Assembly: GCA_951406725.2 (NCBI GenBank)
Contig: OX597818.1
Span: 117,738,001 to 117,802,000, forward strand
DNA length: 64,000 nucleotides
Source of the DNA: Octopus vulgaris
Lineage: Eukaryota
Reading direction: 5' to 3'
Each line of letters begins with the position of its first letter. Position 1 is the stretch's first letter. Under the pieces are notes generated by a model. That model saw only the letters and a list, made by a program, of their open reading frames with translations, ran no database searches and was not told where the DNA came from. The position numbers and the translations under genes are program-made. This document shows, piece after piece, positions 6,690 through 63,850 of this stretch.

Positions 6690-7471
6690 TCTATAATTAC
6701 TTTGATACTTAGGTGGGTGGAGTTAGTTACTTGCTGGATGCTCTCCATTACGCTCCTATCAGTTTCTAAATTACCGTTACTAGAGTCCGTCTTAACTATG
6801 ATATTAATGTCACCTACATACCTACTGTAGAGCAGAAGAGTTATGTACTGTTCTGGTAAGAATTGCTTAAGTTTTCTGCCGCACCAGGTCATGAAGAGGG
6901 CGGCCACATCTCCAGCTACACCGACACCAATGGCTGCACCTTGAACCTGCGAGTATAGTGTTTTTGTTAAAATTTACTATGTGGTTCTTCAAATTGGTTC
7001 TTACACTGGCCCCTATTGCATATGCAAGCATTTCTTTCACCTGATTTTTGTTCTCAGTGTCTTGGATGGATACGGTCCAGTTACTCCAGCGCTCTGGAGT
7101 GGTGCTTTTATTCACTGCTGAGGTGATTGTGGCTGGTCTTCCCCTCTGCGACCAGGTGATGTAGAATCTATTGATGTCACGGTCGTCTAAATAATCACTG
7201 TCGTAGCTTAGTCTAAGGAGGAGGCCCAGTTCCCTCGTGTTGACCTCACGGAACTCTACTTCACTCTCACAGATTACCTCAATGCATTTCTCCACAGCAA
7301 AATCTATGTCTATAGATGGGTAGAGTGAAATGACATCCATACTACCCGCTACACAACCTGTGAGATCGTTGGAGAGTTTGCAAGTACTGATTTTACTGAG
7401 GACACGCAGACATCTGGAGATATCTTTATGAGAGTCGTAACACTTGTGTGAAATGAAAAAGTTTTTAATGC
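6690..7471 (-). mobile_element. Inverted 782-bp duplicate of the PLE RT fragment at 9026-9807
   Basis: Identical 157-aa ORFs at 6867-7340(-) and 9157-9630(+); ends map 6690<->9807 and 7471<->9026. Confidence 0.92.
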
Positions 7472-8147
7472 TTTTCCAACGAAAAAGTAAGTATTAGCCT
7501 CATCACTTGACCTTCGAAAACTAACAGCTAAACGTCCCTCAAATTATTTTCTCTTGTCTGAATTAAGGAAGGATACATGTGGTAGTACACGCGTCCACAA
7601 AATGGGATTGTCAAAACTGGCATACGTATGATCATAAGGCTGGCATGAGTCTAATAAACAAAGACGATACAAGCAGCAACGACAAAATATCACAAAATAG
7701 CACAAACGACAACAGCCATTTCACGAATGGAGAAAACAAAGCCACTTTGACAATACATATAACGTACACAAAAAAAAAACTCAGTAAATTCTAGTTGTAC
7801 CATAAGCAACAAACATTTTAAAGCGTTTTCAACTTTTAACACCATTAAACAATTGGAACTAACAGTATTTGAATAATGATAAGAGTGTCAGCAGCAATGT
7901 GCAAATATCCTGGCCGAGATATAAATAAATATAGAAATTTTAAAGAATTAGAATGGAAAAAAAAATACCAGCAAAAACTTAAATATAATTATATATACGT
8001 TACAGTAAACTTGAAGAACGTCCGCAAGGATTCTATTATTTAAAGATATGATTCTCAACAATGGTACCAAAGAGAATACGAAGTAAGTGTGCCCTTACAT
8101 ACAAACATACATACACACTTATATATACCCACAAACACATAGATACA

Positions 8148-8944: not shown

Positions 8945-9047
8945 AGATCGCTAACCACTACGCATTCTTTATTTTCTCTCCTTGTTTCCTCCTGTGTTCC
9001 TTTCTGTGGAGAGCGTAGGCTCAACGCATTAAAAACTTTTTCATTTC
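8945..9047 (+). mobile_element. Damaged copy of the CUGUNGA HHR-motif element
   Basis: ccttt-ctgtgga-gagcgtaggctc is retained but GAAA is lost; upstream pyrimidine-rich segment matches the 5105-5290 and 16885-17050 copies. Confidence 0.6.
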
Positions 9048-10800
9048 ACACAAGTGTTACGACTCTCATAAAGATATCTCCAGATGTCTGCGTGTCCTCA
9101 GTAAAATCAGTACTTGCAAACTCTCCAACGATCTCACAGGTTGTGTAGCGGGTAGTATGGATGTCATTTCACTCTACCCATCTATAGACATAGATTTTGC
9201 TGTGGAGAAATGCATTGAGGTAATCTGTGAGAGTGAAGTAGAGTTCCGTGAGGTCAACACGAGGGAACTGGGCCTCCTCCTTAGACTAAGCTACGACAGT
9301 GATTATTTAGACGACCGTGACATCAATAGATTCTACATCACCTGGTCGCAGAGGGGAAGACCAGCCACAATCACCTCAGCAGTGAATAAAAGCACCACTC
9401 CAGAGCGCTGGAGTAACTGGACCGTATCCATCCAAGACACTGAGAACAAAAATCAGGTGAAAGAAATGCTTGCATATGCAATAGGGGCCAGTGTAAGAAC
9501 CAATTTGAAGAACCACATAGTAAATTTTAACAAAAACACTATACTCGCAGGTTCAAGGTGCAGCCATTGGTGTCGGTGTAGCTGGAGATGTGGCCGCCCT
9601 CTTCATGACCTGGTGCGGCAGAAAACTTAAGCAATTCTTACCAGAACAGTACATAACTCTTCTGCTCTACAGTAGGTATGTAGGTGACATTAATATCATA
9701 GTTAAGACGGACTCTAGTAACGGTAATTTAGAAACTGATAGGAGCGTAATGGAGAGCATCCAGCAAGTAACTAACTCCACCCACCTAAGTATCAAAGTAA
9801 TTATAGATTACCCCACTACGCCCCCCCCCCACCAACAATAGACTTCCCGTCCTTGATACTGAACTTTGATTAAAGACTGAACAATAGTGTGCAGCTCCTT
9901 CACTCCTATTACATGAAACTCATAGCTTCGAAATATATTGTTCCCAAGAACTCAGCTTTGTCTCACAACATGAAAATTAACATACTGATAGCAAACTTAG
10001 GACAACGAACAAAGTGTCCCCACTATGAAAACTCTATGAAACGAATATACTTGTACGGAGCTTCATGCCCCGCATGCAATTCTCTGGATATGATCAGAAA
10101 GATAGGGTTCGAGTATACAAGGGCACTAGAAAGAAATTAGAGAACGTTATATGAAATGATACCAGTGGTACCTGTCCTAGATATAGAGACAAAGAATGGA
10201 ATAGGATACAAAGAACTTGTGTCAAAGCAAACAGGATGAACACGTGGTATAAAACCGACAAATATCAAAGAGTGGTGTTTGTAGAGGCCATAGCTCATTG
10301 AGAACTAGGCCGTAGCTTTAGGAAAGCTCTGAATGAGACCAAACTCAACATTAAGATTGCTGAAAAACCAGGAAACTCCATCAGATCAGAACTATGTAGG
10401 ACATATCACTTTGAGAATACCATATGCACCAATGATAACTGCGTGGTATGTAGGATTAACCCAGGCATTAACCGTAGAACTAGAAATGTAGTTTCCAGCA
10501 TAAGATGCATAGAATGTGCTTGTAAAGACATGAACATGATATACATAGGGGAGACATGTGGGAGCATTGCAAAACGATTAAATGAACATTTGAGACAATA
10601 TGACGACAAATAACAGTCCTCCATACTCTACAAGCATGCCAAGGACCAGCATGGAGACAACCTGGGTCAACTTGACATCCGCATTTTATCCAAACACCCA
10701 AAGGACCCAACACTCAGACAAATACAGCAGTACGTCCTCATAAATGAAACTTCTCCAATACAAAATAGGAAATATACATAGTAGATATCATACCCACAGT
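9048..10800 (+). mobile_element. Penelope-like retroelement relic: RT plus GIY-YIG endonuclease, frameshifted
   Basis: GSMDVISLYPSID (RT motif A), QVQGAAIGVGVAGDVAALFM, LYSRYVGDINI (decayed YVDD), LPVLD; from 10425 CTNDNCVVC...NVVSSIRCIEC...IYIGETCGSIAKRLNEH...LYKHAKDQH (GIY-YIG). Confidence 0.9.
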
Positions 10801-13347: not shown

Positions 13348-13391
<44 letters not shown>

Positions 13392-13621
13392 TATAATTAA
13401 TCAATATAGGGTGGCAAGGAAAATTTTGTAGAATTTTTTTGCCACCAGCGGCCCAGTGGGAAAAAATTAAATAGTCATAGACCATTTTTAAGTTCAACAT
13501 TAACAATTAAGGAACGGCCATAATAGGCCATTCACCCACTAGAAATAACAGCCAAAGCTTCTACCGCAAATAAAGATTAATTCCGTAAACAGGAGAAAAT
13601 TAAAAAAACATTTACCCTGTA

Positions 13622-13728
13622 ATTTCTTGTACGGTATACCGTTTCATCCGCTGTTTAATGGTAAACTAACCTGATTAAATTAAATCAAGCCAATCTTCCA
13701 TAAGCCCTCAGATTCTTCAGCAAGAAAT
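13622..13728 (-). ncRNA. Type I hammerhead ribozyme (left-arm copy)
   Basis: Reverse complement of 14123-14229. Confidence 0.82.
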
Positions 13729-14122
13729 AGCTCAAGTCGGAACAGATATTTACACGAGGCATACCCAACCCTGCCAAGGCAATATCTGACCTAAAATTTT
13801 CAAATCGTCGCACTCGCGCCAAATTTATCGGCAGCAAATAAATATAAGCCGTCGATTCCAATTACGGAATTAACCAAAAAATTCATAATTAATCAATATA
13901 GGGTGGCAAGGAAAATTTTGTAGAATTTTTTTGCCACCAGCGGCCAAACCCTATATTGATTAATTATGAATTTTTTGGTTAATTCCGTAATGGAATCGAC
14001 GGCTTATAATTATTTGCTGCCGATAAATTTGGCGCGAGTGCGACGATTTGAAAATTTTAGGTCAGATATTGCCTTGGCAGGGTTGGGTATGCCTCGTGTA
14101 AATATCTGTTCCGACTTGAGCT

Positions 14123-14229
14123 ATTTCTTGCTGAAGAATCTGAGGGCTTATGGAAGATTGGCTTGATTTAATTTAATCAGGTTAGTTTACCATTAAACAG
14201 CGGATGAAACGGTATACCGTACAAGAAAT
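14123..14229 (+). ncRNA. Type I hammerhead ribozyme with extended stem II
   Basis: Stem I auuucuug/caagaaau (8 bp), core CUGAAGA (14131-14137), stem II base aucug/cggau closing a 58-nt insert, GAAA (14206-14209), stem III cgg(uaua)ccg, GUA cleavage triplet (14219-14221). Confidence 0.85.
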
Positions 14230-14342
14230 TACAGGGTAAATGTTTTTTTAATTTTCTCCTGTTTACGGAATTAATCTTTATTTGCGGTAGAAGCTTTGGC
14301 TGTTATTTCTAGTGGGTGAATGGCCTATTATGGCCGTTCCTT

Positions 14343-14439
<97 letters not shown>

Positions 14440-14970
14440 TGTATATATATATATATAAATATATATATATATATTTATACATATACATACATGCTCACAC
14501 ACACACACAAACACTCACAAATACACACACACATATATATATATATATATATGCCTCTACGTATATACGCATCTATGTCGCTGAATTCCTTGTATATTTT
14601 GAATACTTAATGCCATCTGTTATTTAGCCTATATATTTTAGCCTATATTTAGCCTATATTTTTAGACCCTGTGTCTTATTGCTGAATTGTTTTATATCCT
14701 ATTTTGTTTAAACTATTTTCTCTCGTTTCTTTCATTTATTTGGATAATTTCTTTGGAAACATTCTTGATATTTCCGTATTTTGTGGTTGAGTTATGCAGA
14801 CAAATTTTACATTGCTCAATTCGGAACTCGTTAACTAAGCGAGAAGAATCTTAAGAATACCATAACATTACTAAGAGCATTGCTTTTCCATATTAATGTC
14901 AAAACTTTAAAATTTTATAAAAAATATTCCATTCACCATTTCTTTCAGATGATTGCAATGTAGGTTTCAC

Positions 14971-37665: not shown

Positions 37666-39270
37666 ATATTTGAGAAACCATTCCTGTAGTCTCTGCTCAT
37701 ATATGGAGTCATGCGAAAATTTGTATATGAACATAAACGTGTCATAACATAAATTCACATTGTCTAGGACATGTATTAGTTATATAATATTTCGCAAAAA
37801 TACATACGTACCCTGAGACAGTGGAACGGTCACTCCATCATTTACGACGGAGATATATATTTGAGAAACCATTCCTATAGTCGGTGCTCATATATGGAGA
37901 GATACGTAAAGTTGTATATGAACATAAACGTGTCATAACATAAATTCACATTGTCTAGGACATGTATTAGTTATATAATATTTCGCAAAAATACATACGT
38001 ACCCTGAGACAGTGGAACGGTCACTCCATCATTTACGACGGAGATATATATTTGAGAAACCATTCCTATAGTCGGTGCTCATATATGGAGAGATACGTAA
38101 AGTTGTATATGAACATAAACGTGTCATAACATAAATTCACATTGTCTAGGACATGTATTAGTTATATAATATTTCGCAAAAATACATACGTACCCTGAGA
38201 CAGTGGAACGGTCACTCCATCATTTACGACGGAGATATATATTTGAGAAACCATTCCTATAGTCGGTGCTCATATATGGAGAGATACGTAAAGTTGTATA
38301 TGAACATAAACGTGTCATAACATAAATTCACATTGTCTAGGACATGTATTAGTTATATAATATTTCGCAAAAATACATACGTACCCTGAGACAGTGGAAC
38401 GGTCACTCCATCATTTACGACGGAGATATATATTTGAGAAACCATTCCTATAGTCGGTGCTCATATATGGAGAGATACGTAAAGTTGTATATGAACATAA
38501 ACGTGTCATAACATAAATTCACATTGTCTAGGACATGTATTAGTTATATAATATTTCGCAAAAATACATACGTACCCTGAGACAGTGGAACGGTCACTCC
38601 ATCATTTACGACGGAGGTATATATTTGAGAAACCATTCCTATAGTCGGTGCTCATATATGGAGAGATACGTAAAGTTGTATATGAACATAAACGTGTCAT
38701 AACATAAATTCACATTGTCTAGGACATGTATTAGTTATATAATATTTCGCAAAAATACATACGTACCCTGAGACAGTGGAACGGTCACTCCATCATTTAC
38801 GACGGAGGTATATATTTGAGAAACCATTCCTATAGTCGGTGCTCATATATGGAGAGATACGTAAAGTTGTATATGAACATAAACGTGTCATAACATAAAT
38901 TCACATTGTCTAGGACATGTATTAGTTATATAATTCTTCGCAAAAATACATACGTACCCTGAGACAGTGGAACGGTCACTCCATCATTTACGACGGAGAT
39001 ATATATTTGAGAAACCATTCCTGTAGTCGGTGCTCATATATGGAGAGATACGTAAAGTTGTATATGAACATAAACGTGTCATAACATAAATTCACATTGT
39101 CTAGGACATGTATTAGTTATATAATCCTTCGTAAAGATACACACGTATCCTGAGACAGTGGAAGAGTCACTCCATCATTTACGACGGAGGTCTATATTTG
39201 AGAAACCATTCCAATAGTCCCTGCTCCTGTATGGAGACCTACGAACTATCACTCCACCCATTACGATGGA
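37666..39270. repeat. Tandem array of a 191-bp unit (8 full copies plus a partial one)
   Basis: gagaaaccattcc starts at 37672, 37863, 38054, 38245, 38436, 38627, 38818, 39009 and 39200; inner copies nearly identical, outer copies diverged. Confidence 0.97.
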
Positions 39271-53333: not shown

Positions 53334-54000
53334 TATATATATATATATTAATATAAGCATATAATGTTACAGCTATCGAAAAATATATATTAGCTTACTA
53401 TTCATACCAAAAAATGTTTTGAATTTAAAGCATCGCATTACTATTTGTTGCTCTAGATACTTACTTGTCTATCGATTTCATAGCTAGTACCTAGAAGTGT
53501 CGCCATTTTGATGAGATAAAAAGGGGTTCACCTTAATTAGCTGAACAGCCTATTTTCTATAAATGAGGGTGAGATTGAATATCTGATTGAGCTGAATAGA
53601 CCTATATAAAAGTATGACTAGATCGGAGCGCAGAATTGAGAAAAAGACACATGCCCTTGAGCTAATTCAATTTTTTCCCTGTCTGTTTCTAAATTGGTTT
53701 GAAACTCCCACTGTTTTGCAACTCGTAAATATTATGCTCCACATCCTCCACTCTTATCGCAATACTGGTGTAATTATTAAAGAGTAAGGCAAAATACACC
53801 GCGGTGTTTCCGGCTTTTTTACGTTTTGAGTACAAAACAGCGTGGAGGGCATCTTTGTTCTCCATGCTTTAAATTTCGAAACGAACTGTGCAATAATAAC
53901 GTAGTAGCATCGATGGTATCGTGGTTACACATTCCCCTCCTCACCCCTAAAATTGCTGGCCTTATGACTGAATTATAAACATTTATCGACGGTGGGGGTG

Positions 54001-54325
54001 GGGGAAATTTATTACCAGAATTATTACAGTGTTTGTAAAAAGCTTGGTGGTAACTCTTGCGATATTTTACATTCTGACTAGAAATTTTTCCGTTGTCAGC
54101 CTTGATTATCATCCTTCCTGGTCGGTAAAATAAAACTCCAAGCATATAGGGGTTGGGGGAAATTTATTGGCGGAATTATTACAGTGTTTGTAAAAAGCTT
54201 GGTGGTAGCTCTTGCGATTTTTTACATTCTGACTTGGAATTCTTCCGTAGTCAGCCTTAATTATCACCTTCCTGGTCGGTAAAATAAAACTCCAGGCGAA
54301 TAGGGACTGGGGGAAATTTATTGGC
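54001..54325 (+). repeat. ~155-bp tandem duplication of a decayed family D SINE segment
   Basis: ggggaaatttatt at 54001, 54156 and 54310; units contain ccttcctggtcggtaaaataaaactcca. Confidence 0.8.
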
Positions 54326-55526
54326 AGAAGTATTAAGGTGAAGGTGTGAAACATGATTATAAAAAATCGCTCAAAGCTAGGTATGAACAACATACTAACA
54401 CTTTCTTCAACATGTATAGAAAAAATAATGTTACTTCTCTGAAGCAGCAAATTTGTAAAACATGGGAGCTGGGAACTACGAATACAAGTTCCCGCTGGGA
54501 ATAACAGTTAATGACGCTGATTCTTCAAATTGACCAAAAGCAACACGAGACGTGTAGCCTCATGATACAGTAACTAAGTATATTCAACAGGAGGCTTACA
54601 ACATATTTGTTCACAAAACAGAAAATTTCCGCAGGAGCGCCGTATCAGAATAGTAGTAGACAAAATCTTTGGAGAAACGGCAATATTAATAAGGGTCATA
54701 ATTAGAGAGACAAGGAGGAAAATGGACAGGAAAATATAATTGATAGATAGCATGCATCTAAGAAGAAATTTCTGTTACAAAAACATGAAGGAACATGCAT
54801 CATAAAGTTTGTATTTCAACCAAAATCTCAATACATACATACACAGACACACACACACATACATACATACATACATACATACATACATACATACATACAT
54901 ACATACATACATACACACGTACATATAGAGAAAGAAACAGACACAGATACACACATACAAACATGCATGCATGTGTATATATACATCCATGCACTACCCA
55001 TACATACACACACACAGATGAATACATGACATAAGTACATAGGGATATATATATTTATATATATATCCGTATCTTTCTCACTATCTATATACCTCTATCT
55101 CTCTCTCTCTCTCTCTCTATCTATCTACCTACTTACCTACCTATTTATCTATATATCTATCTATCTACTTTATGGCTCGTACCTTTTCTTACTCCCCTGT
55201 ATAATTGTCAAGTTGCCTTCTCTCCGTCTCTCCATTTTAAAAAGAAAGTATATCGTTCTGTAATTTCGTATCTACTCTACATTTTTCTCCTCCGTTCTTT
55301 CCTGTCCTGTCCCTTCCCTCTCTGTGTCTCTGTCCCTCAATTTATTAGCTTCACTCTCCCTTTACTACAAATTTCAACATTCTCTCAACAAAGTATGCAA
55401 CCCCAGTTCTGCCATATCACATTGCTTATTTGATATTTGGAAACGGCAAAAGTTGACACATTCACACACACAACATACACTGACATATAACTTTTACATA
55501 TAACACCAACACACGCAAAATACACT

Positions 55527-61900: not shown

Positions 61901-62260
61901 GTGTGGCTGTGTGGTAAGTAGGTTGTTTAGCAAGCACATCGTTCCAGGTTCAGTTCCACTGCGTGGGCCCTTGGGCAAGCGTCTTTTACCCACCAAAGCC
62001 CTGTGAGTGGATATGGTAGACGGAAGGTGAAAGAGGTTTGTCATTTATACATATATATATGTGTGTGTGTATGTTTGTGTGTCTATTTTTGTCCCCCAAC
62101 ACCGCTTGACAACCGATGCTGGTGTGTTTACGTCCGCGAAACTTGGCATTTCGGCAACAGAGCCCAATAGAATACGTACTAGGCTTACAAAGAATAAGTC
62201 CTCGGGTCGATTTTTCTCTACTAAAAGCGGTGTTCCAGCATGGCCGCAGTCAAATGACTA
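61901..62260 (+). mobile_element. SINE family A abutting the PLE
   Basis: Homology to the other copies; tail cut at the PLE junction. Confidence 0.85.
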
Positions 62261-63850
62261 AACTAAATTTAGTCGTTTGTTGTTTTTTATGCTATATTTG
62301 TTTAATATGTTTTTCATTTTGGGGCTTTGTAAGGATATTGGTAGGTTTGAATGTATGGTTTGGAACATGTTGGTAACTCCAGGGTTGTGCATGTTTATAA
62401 AAGGGATAATGTTTTCTTTGTTTTTTGTTTTGGGTGTCCTGAGTTGGTCGATGTCTAGTTTTAATGCTCTTGTGATTCCTTCTATAGGTTTAAGGGGGTA
62501 TTTTTGCTCTTGGAGGAAGTTTTTAAGTTCATCTAGTCTTATTAGTCGTATTTGTGAATCAGTTACTATGCTACATATTTGTCTTGCCATACTATATGGG
62601 ATGTTTCTTTTTGTGTGTGATGGGTGACAGGAGTGGAAATTTAAATATTGGTGTGTGTCAGTTTTTTTTGTAGTGGATGTCTGTTGTGACGATGGAGTTG
62701 TGTATTTTGATGTTGATGTCTAGGAAGGGAAGTTCGTTGTAGCTGGTATCTATTGTGAAGTTGATAGATGGATGCAGCGTATTGAGGATGTTGTGGAATG
62801 TTCGTAGGTCTTCTTCTGATCTGTTCCAAAAGATGAAGCAGTCATCGAGGTAGCGTTTCCACTTTTTCTTGATGTCTTCTTTGAAGTCGTGTTCGAAGAC
62901 TTTCCCTATTTCATCGTATAGTTTGTTCTCCAGGAAACCCATCACCAGGTTGGCATATGAAGATGCGAAGTTTGTACCCATAGCCGTGCCTTTTATCTGT
63001 CGGTATGTCTTGTTGTTGAATGAGAATGTATTTTCTTCGAGTATTAATTGGGTGGCTTGGGTGATAAAGTTTGTCTTGAAGCGTTCATCTATAAGTTCTC
63101 TGTATTTTTCTATCGATTGTTTTATTGCTTCTAGACCTAGGGTGTGTGGTATGTTTGTGTATATATTTGTGACATCAAAGCTTGCAAGTATGGTGTTTTT
63201 CGGGACTGTATTTGGAATGTGTGTGAGGAAGTCTATGTCATCCCTTATGTAGCTTGGTATCTGTGGGCATAAAGGTTTGAGGGGTATATCTATGAAGTGG
63301 CTTAGTTGTTGTGTTGGTACCTGGGGTCCTGCCACTATTGTTCTCATTGTGAGGTCTGCAGGCCTTTGTATTCTTATATAGTGGTTCCTCTGTTCCTTTA
63401 TGGCTCTCTGTATTTCAGAACTTTTATGAATTTTAGGTAATCCATAAAAATTGCTTTCTTTGGTTCTTGAGTTGTATAGATAGTCTTTTTCCTTATCTGT
63501 AAAGGAGTCCTGGTATTTATTAACTAAAGTTCTTATTTTTTTTATTGTTGATTTCTCCGGTGGTGTTGGTTCCTCTTTATAGTATGTCTGGTTGTTCAGT
63601 AACTCCAGTATCTTTTCTTTGTCGTAATCTGTATCCATAATTACTATTGCTCCACCTTTGTCAGCTTCTTTTATAATGATTGACATGTCATTTTTCAGTT
63701 TTTGTAAGGCTTGTTTTTCTCCTCTGCGGGAGATTCTGTTTGCATTTGTGTGTGTGGAGAGGGAATTTGGATATTGTCTCTATGTATGCGTCAAGGTGTT
63801 TGTCACTTCTCGTGTAAGGGCTGAAATGGGATTTTTTTCTTAAGATTGAG
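62261..63850 (-). mobile_element. Penelope-like retroelement (Poseidon/Neptune-type RT), truncated at both ends
   Basis: RT ORF at 62658-63686; frameshift at the T-run near 62662-62669; continues TDTHQYLNFHSCHPSHTKRNIPYSMARQICSIV; no GIY-YIG left. Confidence 0.93.
62658..63686 (-). pseudogene. PLE reverse transcriptase core, 342-aa open segment
   Basis: IIIKEADKGGAIVIMD, FYGLPKIHK, LASFDVTNIYTNIPH, YRQIKGTAMGTNFASSYANLVMG, WKRYLDDCFIFW, LPFLDINI. Confidence 0.92.

Follow-up and report, generated by a model that had tools for sequence, protein, structure and literature searches.

The 64-kb stretch of Octopus vulgaris contig OX597818.1 that was analysed, here called the window, carries at positions 13393 to 14345 a feature which is almost certainly an animal non-LTR retrozyme. 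Most insertions of its family consist of two arms whose 5' ends meet inside and whose 3' ends face (TA)n. Of the two outer ends, one is formed by site A (q485-492) and one by site B (q379-389), which sits 106 nt upstream of site A; q denotes the position in the reverse complement of 13393-13884. Both target strands were very probably primed. The complete model, according to which a Penelope-like element (PLE) primes both nicked strands at two fixed sites on one circular RNA, appears reasonably probable. More tentatively, each insertion could be the footprint of one asymmetric PLE dimer on one ribozyme-made RNA circle, rolling from sites A and B. If true, this last reading would explain why all EN+ PLEs show tandem and inverted copies and a tail on one side, and the insertions would be genomic evidence of circular RNA reverse-transcribed into chromosomes.

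The element class is known already; countable insertion rules are added, namely one A and one B end, both arms of one haplotype and the whole array from one monomer. The rules bear on the copying of PLEs and retrozymes, and the value of the analysis lies there more than in the element itself. PLE insertions have been described with an inverted copy and a tail often at one end only, and how the tandem and inverted insertions are made within the PLE cycle is called still undefined (Craig et al. 2021, PMC8557442). Circular RNAs as templates of retrozymes are a proposal (Cervera & de la Pena 2014, PMC4209133; 2020, PMC7229834). The octopus family offers hundreds of young, short, fully assembled insertions in which rules can be counted, and with a putative 490-nt RNA and an intact 784-aa PLE in one genome the question is testable in vitro.

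Anatomy of the window copy and its ribozyme

The first-pass annotation had described a 492-bp unit followed by a repeat of its first 61 bp, a near-perfect inverted copy, (TA)n tracts on both sides and one type I hammerhead in each arm, and all of these were recovered (Table 1). The 61 nt at 13393-13453 are 100% identical to those at 13885-13945, at a spacing of 492, and the right arm matches the left arm in inverted orientation with 397 identities, one mismatch and a 1-nt gap. The A end of this copy is at 13393 and its B end at 14345. Since the left arm has its sense on the minus strand, the 61 bp are a 5'-truncated partial unit and do not form a fixed terminal repeat. The partial unit varies in length between loci, and judged by this repeat layout the family carries no true LTRs. 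Any target-site duplication would be masked by the (TA)n on either side.

Table 1. Features of the two-armed insertion in the window
Feature	Position	Strand	Basis
(TA)n target microsatellite flanking the insertion on the left; includes the element's first bases	13348..13395	.	tract scan
Full 492-bp unit, left arm; sense = minus strand	13393..13884	-	
Site A (q492), forming the outer (3') end of the left arm; reverse transcription likely starts here (start 1)	13393..13410	-	end comparison, site-A/(TA)n junctions
106-nt "tail" from site B (family mode q386) to site A (q492); at one insertion end only	13393..13498	-	
Left-arm hammerhead fold of type I, with the cut predicted at 13630/13629	13622..13728	-	descriptor scan, covariation
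Partial unit of 61 bp, truncated 5' (q432-492) and annotated first as the "direct repeat"; forms the left arm's inner end	13885..13945	-	
2 nt separating the arms, head-to-head junction	13946..13947	.	
Right arm, 398 bp: q473-492, then q1-379; sense = plus strand	13948..14345	+	
Right-arm hammerhead fold of type I, with the cut predicted to follow 14221	14123..14229	+	descriptor scan, folding
Site B (at q379 here and q386 in the majority of copies), forming the outer (3') end of the right arm; reverse transcription likely starts here (start 2)	14332..14345	+	
(TA)n target microsatellite, right flank	14347..14489	.	

Both strands of the whole 64 kb were scanned with a descriptor, and the two folds in Table 1 were the only type I hammerheads found. 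The motif has a stem I of 8 bp, the core CUGAAGA, GAAA, a stem III with palindromic loop and the cleavage triplet GUA; stem II is long, with 68 nt between core and GAAA. In unit coordinates the predicted cut falls at q255/256. The isolated region takes the hammerhead shape at a minimum free energy of -34.3 kcal/mol (z -4.2; 0/200 shuffles). Rfam returned no hammerhead match, neither at the gathering score nor at E ≤ 10, the latter giving only below-threshold hairpin matches over the palindrome centre; the miss is probably due to the 68-nt stem II region. For the short-stem-II pattern of this ribozyme, a possible pLTR ancestor, 0 matches were obtained.

Covariation was assessed in 13 copies of two families: 95.9% of the cells pair, and two-sided changes occur in 16 of 35 pairs, where slid controls reach 3 at most, the copies having been picked for diversity and being related, so that shuffle figures are not probabilities. 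The alignment fold of 14 units gave 97 pairs, 21 of them with two-sided changes, and one intact ribozyme haplotype is present in 166 of 181 spanning units. Judged from fold and covariation, self-cleavage is putative. When the whole unit is folded as a circle, stem I is predicted to be mostly unformed (pair probability ~0.02) and forcing the hammerhead to cost 3.2 kcal/mol, which could shield a circle or signal weak cleavage. The window copy has a single ribozyme per strand; since the two lie on opposite strands, this locus alone is unable to excise a monomer.

The repeat family and the Penelope-like elements of the genome

The genome (2.8 Gb in 227 contigs) was searched with the 492-bp unit, which yielded 235 matches distributed over 40 scored places, from 1,323 candidates, with tandem arrays at many of them; near-full-length matches at these places are mostly 97-100% identical. 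The proposal of a young, non-autonomous, multi-copy element with PLE-type insertions is supported, and the locus is not single-copy. The 27-nt ribozyme core occurs exactly 212 times genome-wide, 197 of the occurrences lying in the 56 stretches analysed. Arrays reach 14 units, and most of the 137 full monomers measured have a length of 485 or 491 bp. The longest ATG ORF in the array of locus L043 encodes 64 aa, and the GC content is ~37% (G or C in 178 of 486 yardstick columns). No ORF with reverse transcriptase (RT) and GIY-YIG domains was found in the element or joined to it at the loci examined, which speaks against the unit being the terminus of an autonomous PLE.

The wider clade includes subfamilies at 82-95% identity. 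Its site-A motif has 3,857 copies (control 2), and 744 exact site-A/(TA)n junctions were counted genome-wide (control 0), corresponding to at least 744 insertion ends. Site-B junctions number 404 on the forward strand, the 800 reverse matches having been counted double. Family 2 has a 482-bp unit at 65% identity, and family 3 has a hammerhead of its own. The latter, a third hammerhead repeat, has a shorter stem II and inverted arms in (TA)n (L094 1850-2500, L126 3380-4500 and L241). On contig C30 (G000:C30), the same insertion is present twice together with its flanks, inverted and 360 kb apart (L031 and L032), that is, as a segmental duplication; L032 was dropped throughout. The unit was compared with four of 21 listed sequencing runs, all four consisting of contigs. 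Close relatives of the unit occur under other species labels: contigs of runs X4 and X16 (organisms coded B and C) cover 28 and 29 of 29 unit bins. In run X1, whose RNA origin is a guess, one 521-nt contig spans the unit and goes back 492. Such a contig is expected alike from a circle, a tandem transcript or DNA and is therefore not counted as evidence.

Several PLE families were found in the same genome with one PLE protein query and a GIY-YIG profile search. One of them is an intact autonomous PLE of 784 aa with RT and GIY-YIG, whose insertions are head-to-head arms placed in (TA)n. Intact frames of 784 aa and of 781 aa are present in many copies and thus co-occur with the repeat family. Both ends of the 784-aa PLE were found at 17 of 46 loci, in the combinations long and short (15), long and intermediate (1) and short and intermediate (1), with no two ends alike. 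Its long end has 9 nt in common with site A of family 2 (17/5,000 shuffles; one of six comparisons) and 8 nt with site A of family 3 (106/5,000 shuffles), and nothing notable in common with site A of the window family (1,786/5,000 shuffles). As far as sequence goes, the 784-aa PLE is only a candidate partner. No homology to the unit of family 1 or 2, in a pLTR or elsewhere, was detected by blastn among the 60 best-scoring PLE loci of ~3-4 kb each, apart from one retrozyme fragment inserted in the flank of L232.

In the autonomous PLEs of this genome, motifs resembling the hammerhead are present whose cores are altered, to UUGAAAA in the 784-aa family and UUGAUAA in the 781-aa family and its relatives (L164-L179, L236, L239, L241 and L248). 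The window itself holds a broken PLE RT at 62258-63779 (-), in two frames and 48% identical over 353 aa to the 784-aa PLE, with an RVT_1 match. A second head-to-head inverted pair of 785 bp, 99.9% identical, lies at 6690-7474 and 9023-9807. It contains a frame of ~205 aa without a Pfam match, which we take to resemble a PLE-type RT fragment.

Arm ends, junctions and alleles

Ends were classed by script at 94 loci, comprising 39 best DNA matches, 16 exact-core loci and 39 site-A-motif loci of contig C1, overlapping C1 loci being merged beforehand. Both ends could be classed at 63 of the 94 loci, and of these 62 were A+B, one A+A and none B+B; at the other 31, one end (29 loci) or both ends (2 loci) stayed unclassed. 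The left end of the lone A+A case, L210, is site B by alignment, and L222 was scored A+B with a doubtful A call. On contig C1, with 53 A ends and 63 B ends, all 19 divergent end pairs within 10 kb are A+B (p = 1.7e-6), a test which shares a few loci with the 94-locus set. Family 2 loci have the A+B layout as well; they were found with an A+B query and were left out of the counts. Independent RNAs free to be primed at either site would give about half like-like ends, and the strict rule therefore suggests that either one asymmetric complex acts or the sites are used in a set order.

Arm lengths range from 0.03 to 14 units. Among 40 inner junctions, the arms overlap by at least two bases in 20 and by one base in 3, are blunt in 2 and carry inserts in 15. 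Matches below 87% identity were left out of the junction counts and those below 93% out of the allele counts. L086-L088, which are extensions of other loci, were dropped from both, and the degraded L074 from the junction analysis.

Across 55 loci, 69 locus-allele cases were fixed in all covering units, 57 were single and 2 were partial; 26 cases had a single covering unit. All 18 rare alleles seen at least twice and covered by both arms are present in both arms. In 41 of 43 loci, no arm from elsewhere is closer than the partner arm of the same insertion; about a third of these loci are uninformative, many of the youngest copies being identical. The two window arms have a rare stem II allele in common (14202 in the right arm, 13649 in the left), of which only three exact copies exist genome-wide. 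The only other locus exactly matching this rare core variant is L070 (4823-5018; G000:C1, ~189.29 Mb), a short B+A insertion that is perhaps a sibling of the window copy. A private allele was present in both arms and all units of L055 (8/8) and of L063 (4/4); such "private" alleles could stem from donor arrays absent from this single assembly. Array-wide alleles were also compared with A-to-I editing, and among 32 alleles A>G occurred 9 times against 4 for T>C (p = 0.048), with 8 for G>A.

Both partial cases lie in L034 (837-9168; G000:C1, ~195.86 Mb), where two sites occur in all four combinations along an arm of 14 units, the only such case. An insertion of an older subfamily is found ~290 bp away. 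The mixture may go back to a switch of template, to RNA bases that were read ambiguously, to a mixed donor or to the merging of haplotypes.

Template of reverse transcription and relation to known elements

In the favoured model of two-site priming on a circle, transcripts of tandem arrays would be cleaved by the ribozyme and would close into circles of ~490 nt, by analogy with known retrozymes. A PLE protein, likely a dimer, would nick both strands at (TA)n, which is the target observed. A single RNA would then be primed by one strand at site A and by its partner at site B, as A+B ends and allele sharing suggest. Each enzyme may copy round the template for as many units as the arm lengths give while displacing the cDNA of the other, and the two cDNA ends would be joined, often via the few shared bases seen at the junctions, by some repair route. 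This agrees with several properties of PLE proteins: the enzyme nicks and extends both target strands, two internal RT start sites define the tail, and a dimer is predicted (Frangieh et al. 2024, PMC11167929). According to the same source, the ribozyme is dispensable in vitro and the start sites of the anole PLE are alike on both strands, the latter being adverse to the model.

Of 36 A arms, 32 run through site B rather than stopping near it, and the predicted cut site is crossed cleanly, ~201 of 207 units being without change over q250-262. A circle closed at the ribozyme site would have a junction equal to the genomic tandem-array sequence, so back-splice reads would be uninformative. Inner ends of long arms (at least 1 unit) lie in q254-260 in 4 of 61 cases against 0.87 expected (p = 0.011); 15 of 61 fall in q255-292 and none in q178-244, both of these windows having been chosen post hoc. 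This gathering of inner ends at the cut and just 3' of it counts against the circle; it fits the 5' end of a cleaved linear RNA, a circle cut during copying, or stalling of the RT at the hairpin.

A linear multimeric read-through transcript, cut at its 5' end only and primed at the same two sites with the arms drawn from different units, is an unlikely template, though one to be taken seriously. Inner ends of long arms observed at the cut site (q255, 256, 257 and 258) speak for it, and the four haplotypes along one arm of L034, which are unlike the product of one clean circle, would be accommodated. Moreover, the anole PLE mainly uses uncleaved RNA in vitro (PMC11167929). Against it, a linear multimer cannot lengthen arrays or spread a new allele through a whole array, yet 69 cases are fixed and only 2 partial, and the reading of A arms through site B is likewise adverse to it.

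The monomer bottleneck and the ends at the cut site would both be accounted for if the RT jumped repeatedly from the 5' to the 3' end of a cleaved linear monomer, with no covalent circle. End-to-end template jumping is performed by retroelement RTs. PLE RTs are sister to telomerase RTs (PMC8557442). Jumping should leave scars at q255/256, however; none were found there, and rare changes are not enriched over the cut site (4/139 against 5.7 expected). We consider this template improbable.

Very improbable is an origin from one RNA-primed arm, with the inverted arm produced by cDNA fold-back or later DNA events and arrays grown by unequal crossing-over. It would explain alleles common to both arms and the junctions overlapping by at least two bases (20/40), and expansion at the DNA level is favoured for retrozymes, which are there derived from pLTRs, by Li, Clavereau & Pollet 2026 (bioRxiv 10.64898/2026.07.22.740005). 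Nevertheless, fold-back cannot yield 18 of 36 loci if the A arm came first, 25 of 36 if the B arm did and 7 of 36 in either order, and it leaves the stop of the second arm at the other fixed site unexplained; simple fold-back was rejected. That the palindrome is an assembly artefact or the unit a pLTR end of an autonomous PLE is hardly credible: although the palindrome is known from assembled contigs, its two arms stop at separate sites that hold across the family, dozens of loci repeat the layout with differing junctions, and at the loci examined the unit has no PLE ORF joined to it.

The family resembles known animal non-LTR retrozymes in several ways: its tandem repeats are non-coding and low in GC, each unit carries one type I hammerhead, copies are scattered as single units up to multimers, and PLEs are present in the same genome. 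The unit of 485-492 bp is above the 150-450 bp given for animal non-LTR retrozymes in PMC7229834 and within the 51-972 bp given in bioRxiv 10.64898/2026.07.22.740005. Unlike known retrozymes, stem II has a 58-nt extension and the motif is missed by Rfam. Inverted arms, fixed ends and a microsatellite target, all present here, are not described for retrozymes in the accessible text of PMC7229834 and bioRxiv 10.64898/2026.07.22.740005. The latter reports pLTR homology for 24 of 57 Xenopus retrozyme families, in contrast to none in the PLE loci compared here.

With EN+ PLEs the insertions share partial tandems, an inverted 5'-truncated copy, targeting of (TA)n microsatellites, a tail at one end only and, probably, two internal RT starts (PMC8557442, PMC11167929). 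The octopus unit differs in that it has no ORF and a tail of 106 nt against 30-40 in those sources, that the one-end-only tail was counted as a near-absolute A+B rule, and that rare alleles were found to be common to both arms. MRC1 and other non-autonomous PLEs of Chlamys (PMC8557442) have pLTRs and likewise form multicopy head-to-tail insertions; in contrast to the family here, their 3' ends resemble their autonomous family, and the clade is without canonical hammerheads. Outside supplements, Repbase/Dfam and most subscription papers, the literature search revealed no cephalopod retrozyme and no twin-priming or counted A+B account of PLEs; such a family, or the end counts of Fig. S2 of Frangieh et al., could stand in supplements.

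The layout also invites comparison with twin priming of L1. There, both target strands prime cDNA, which results in a head-to-head inversion, and the arms cover adjacent, non-overlapping parts of one linear RNA. In the octopus insertions, by contrast, the start points are both fixed, and the sequence covered by one arm overlaps with or repeats that of the other.

Two further tandem repeats are present in the window. An array at 37666-39237 has a 191-bp unit in 8.2 copies (97% matches) and lacks (TA)n flanks, and the descriptor scan gave no hammerhead in it. The other, at 53994-54335, has a 155-bp unit in 2.2 copies with 89% matches.
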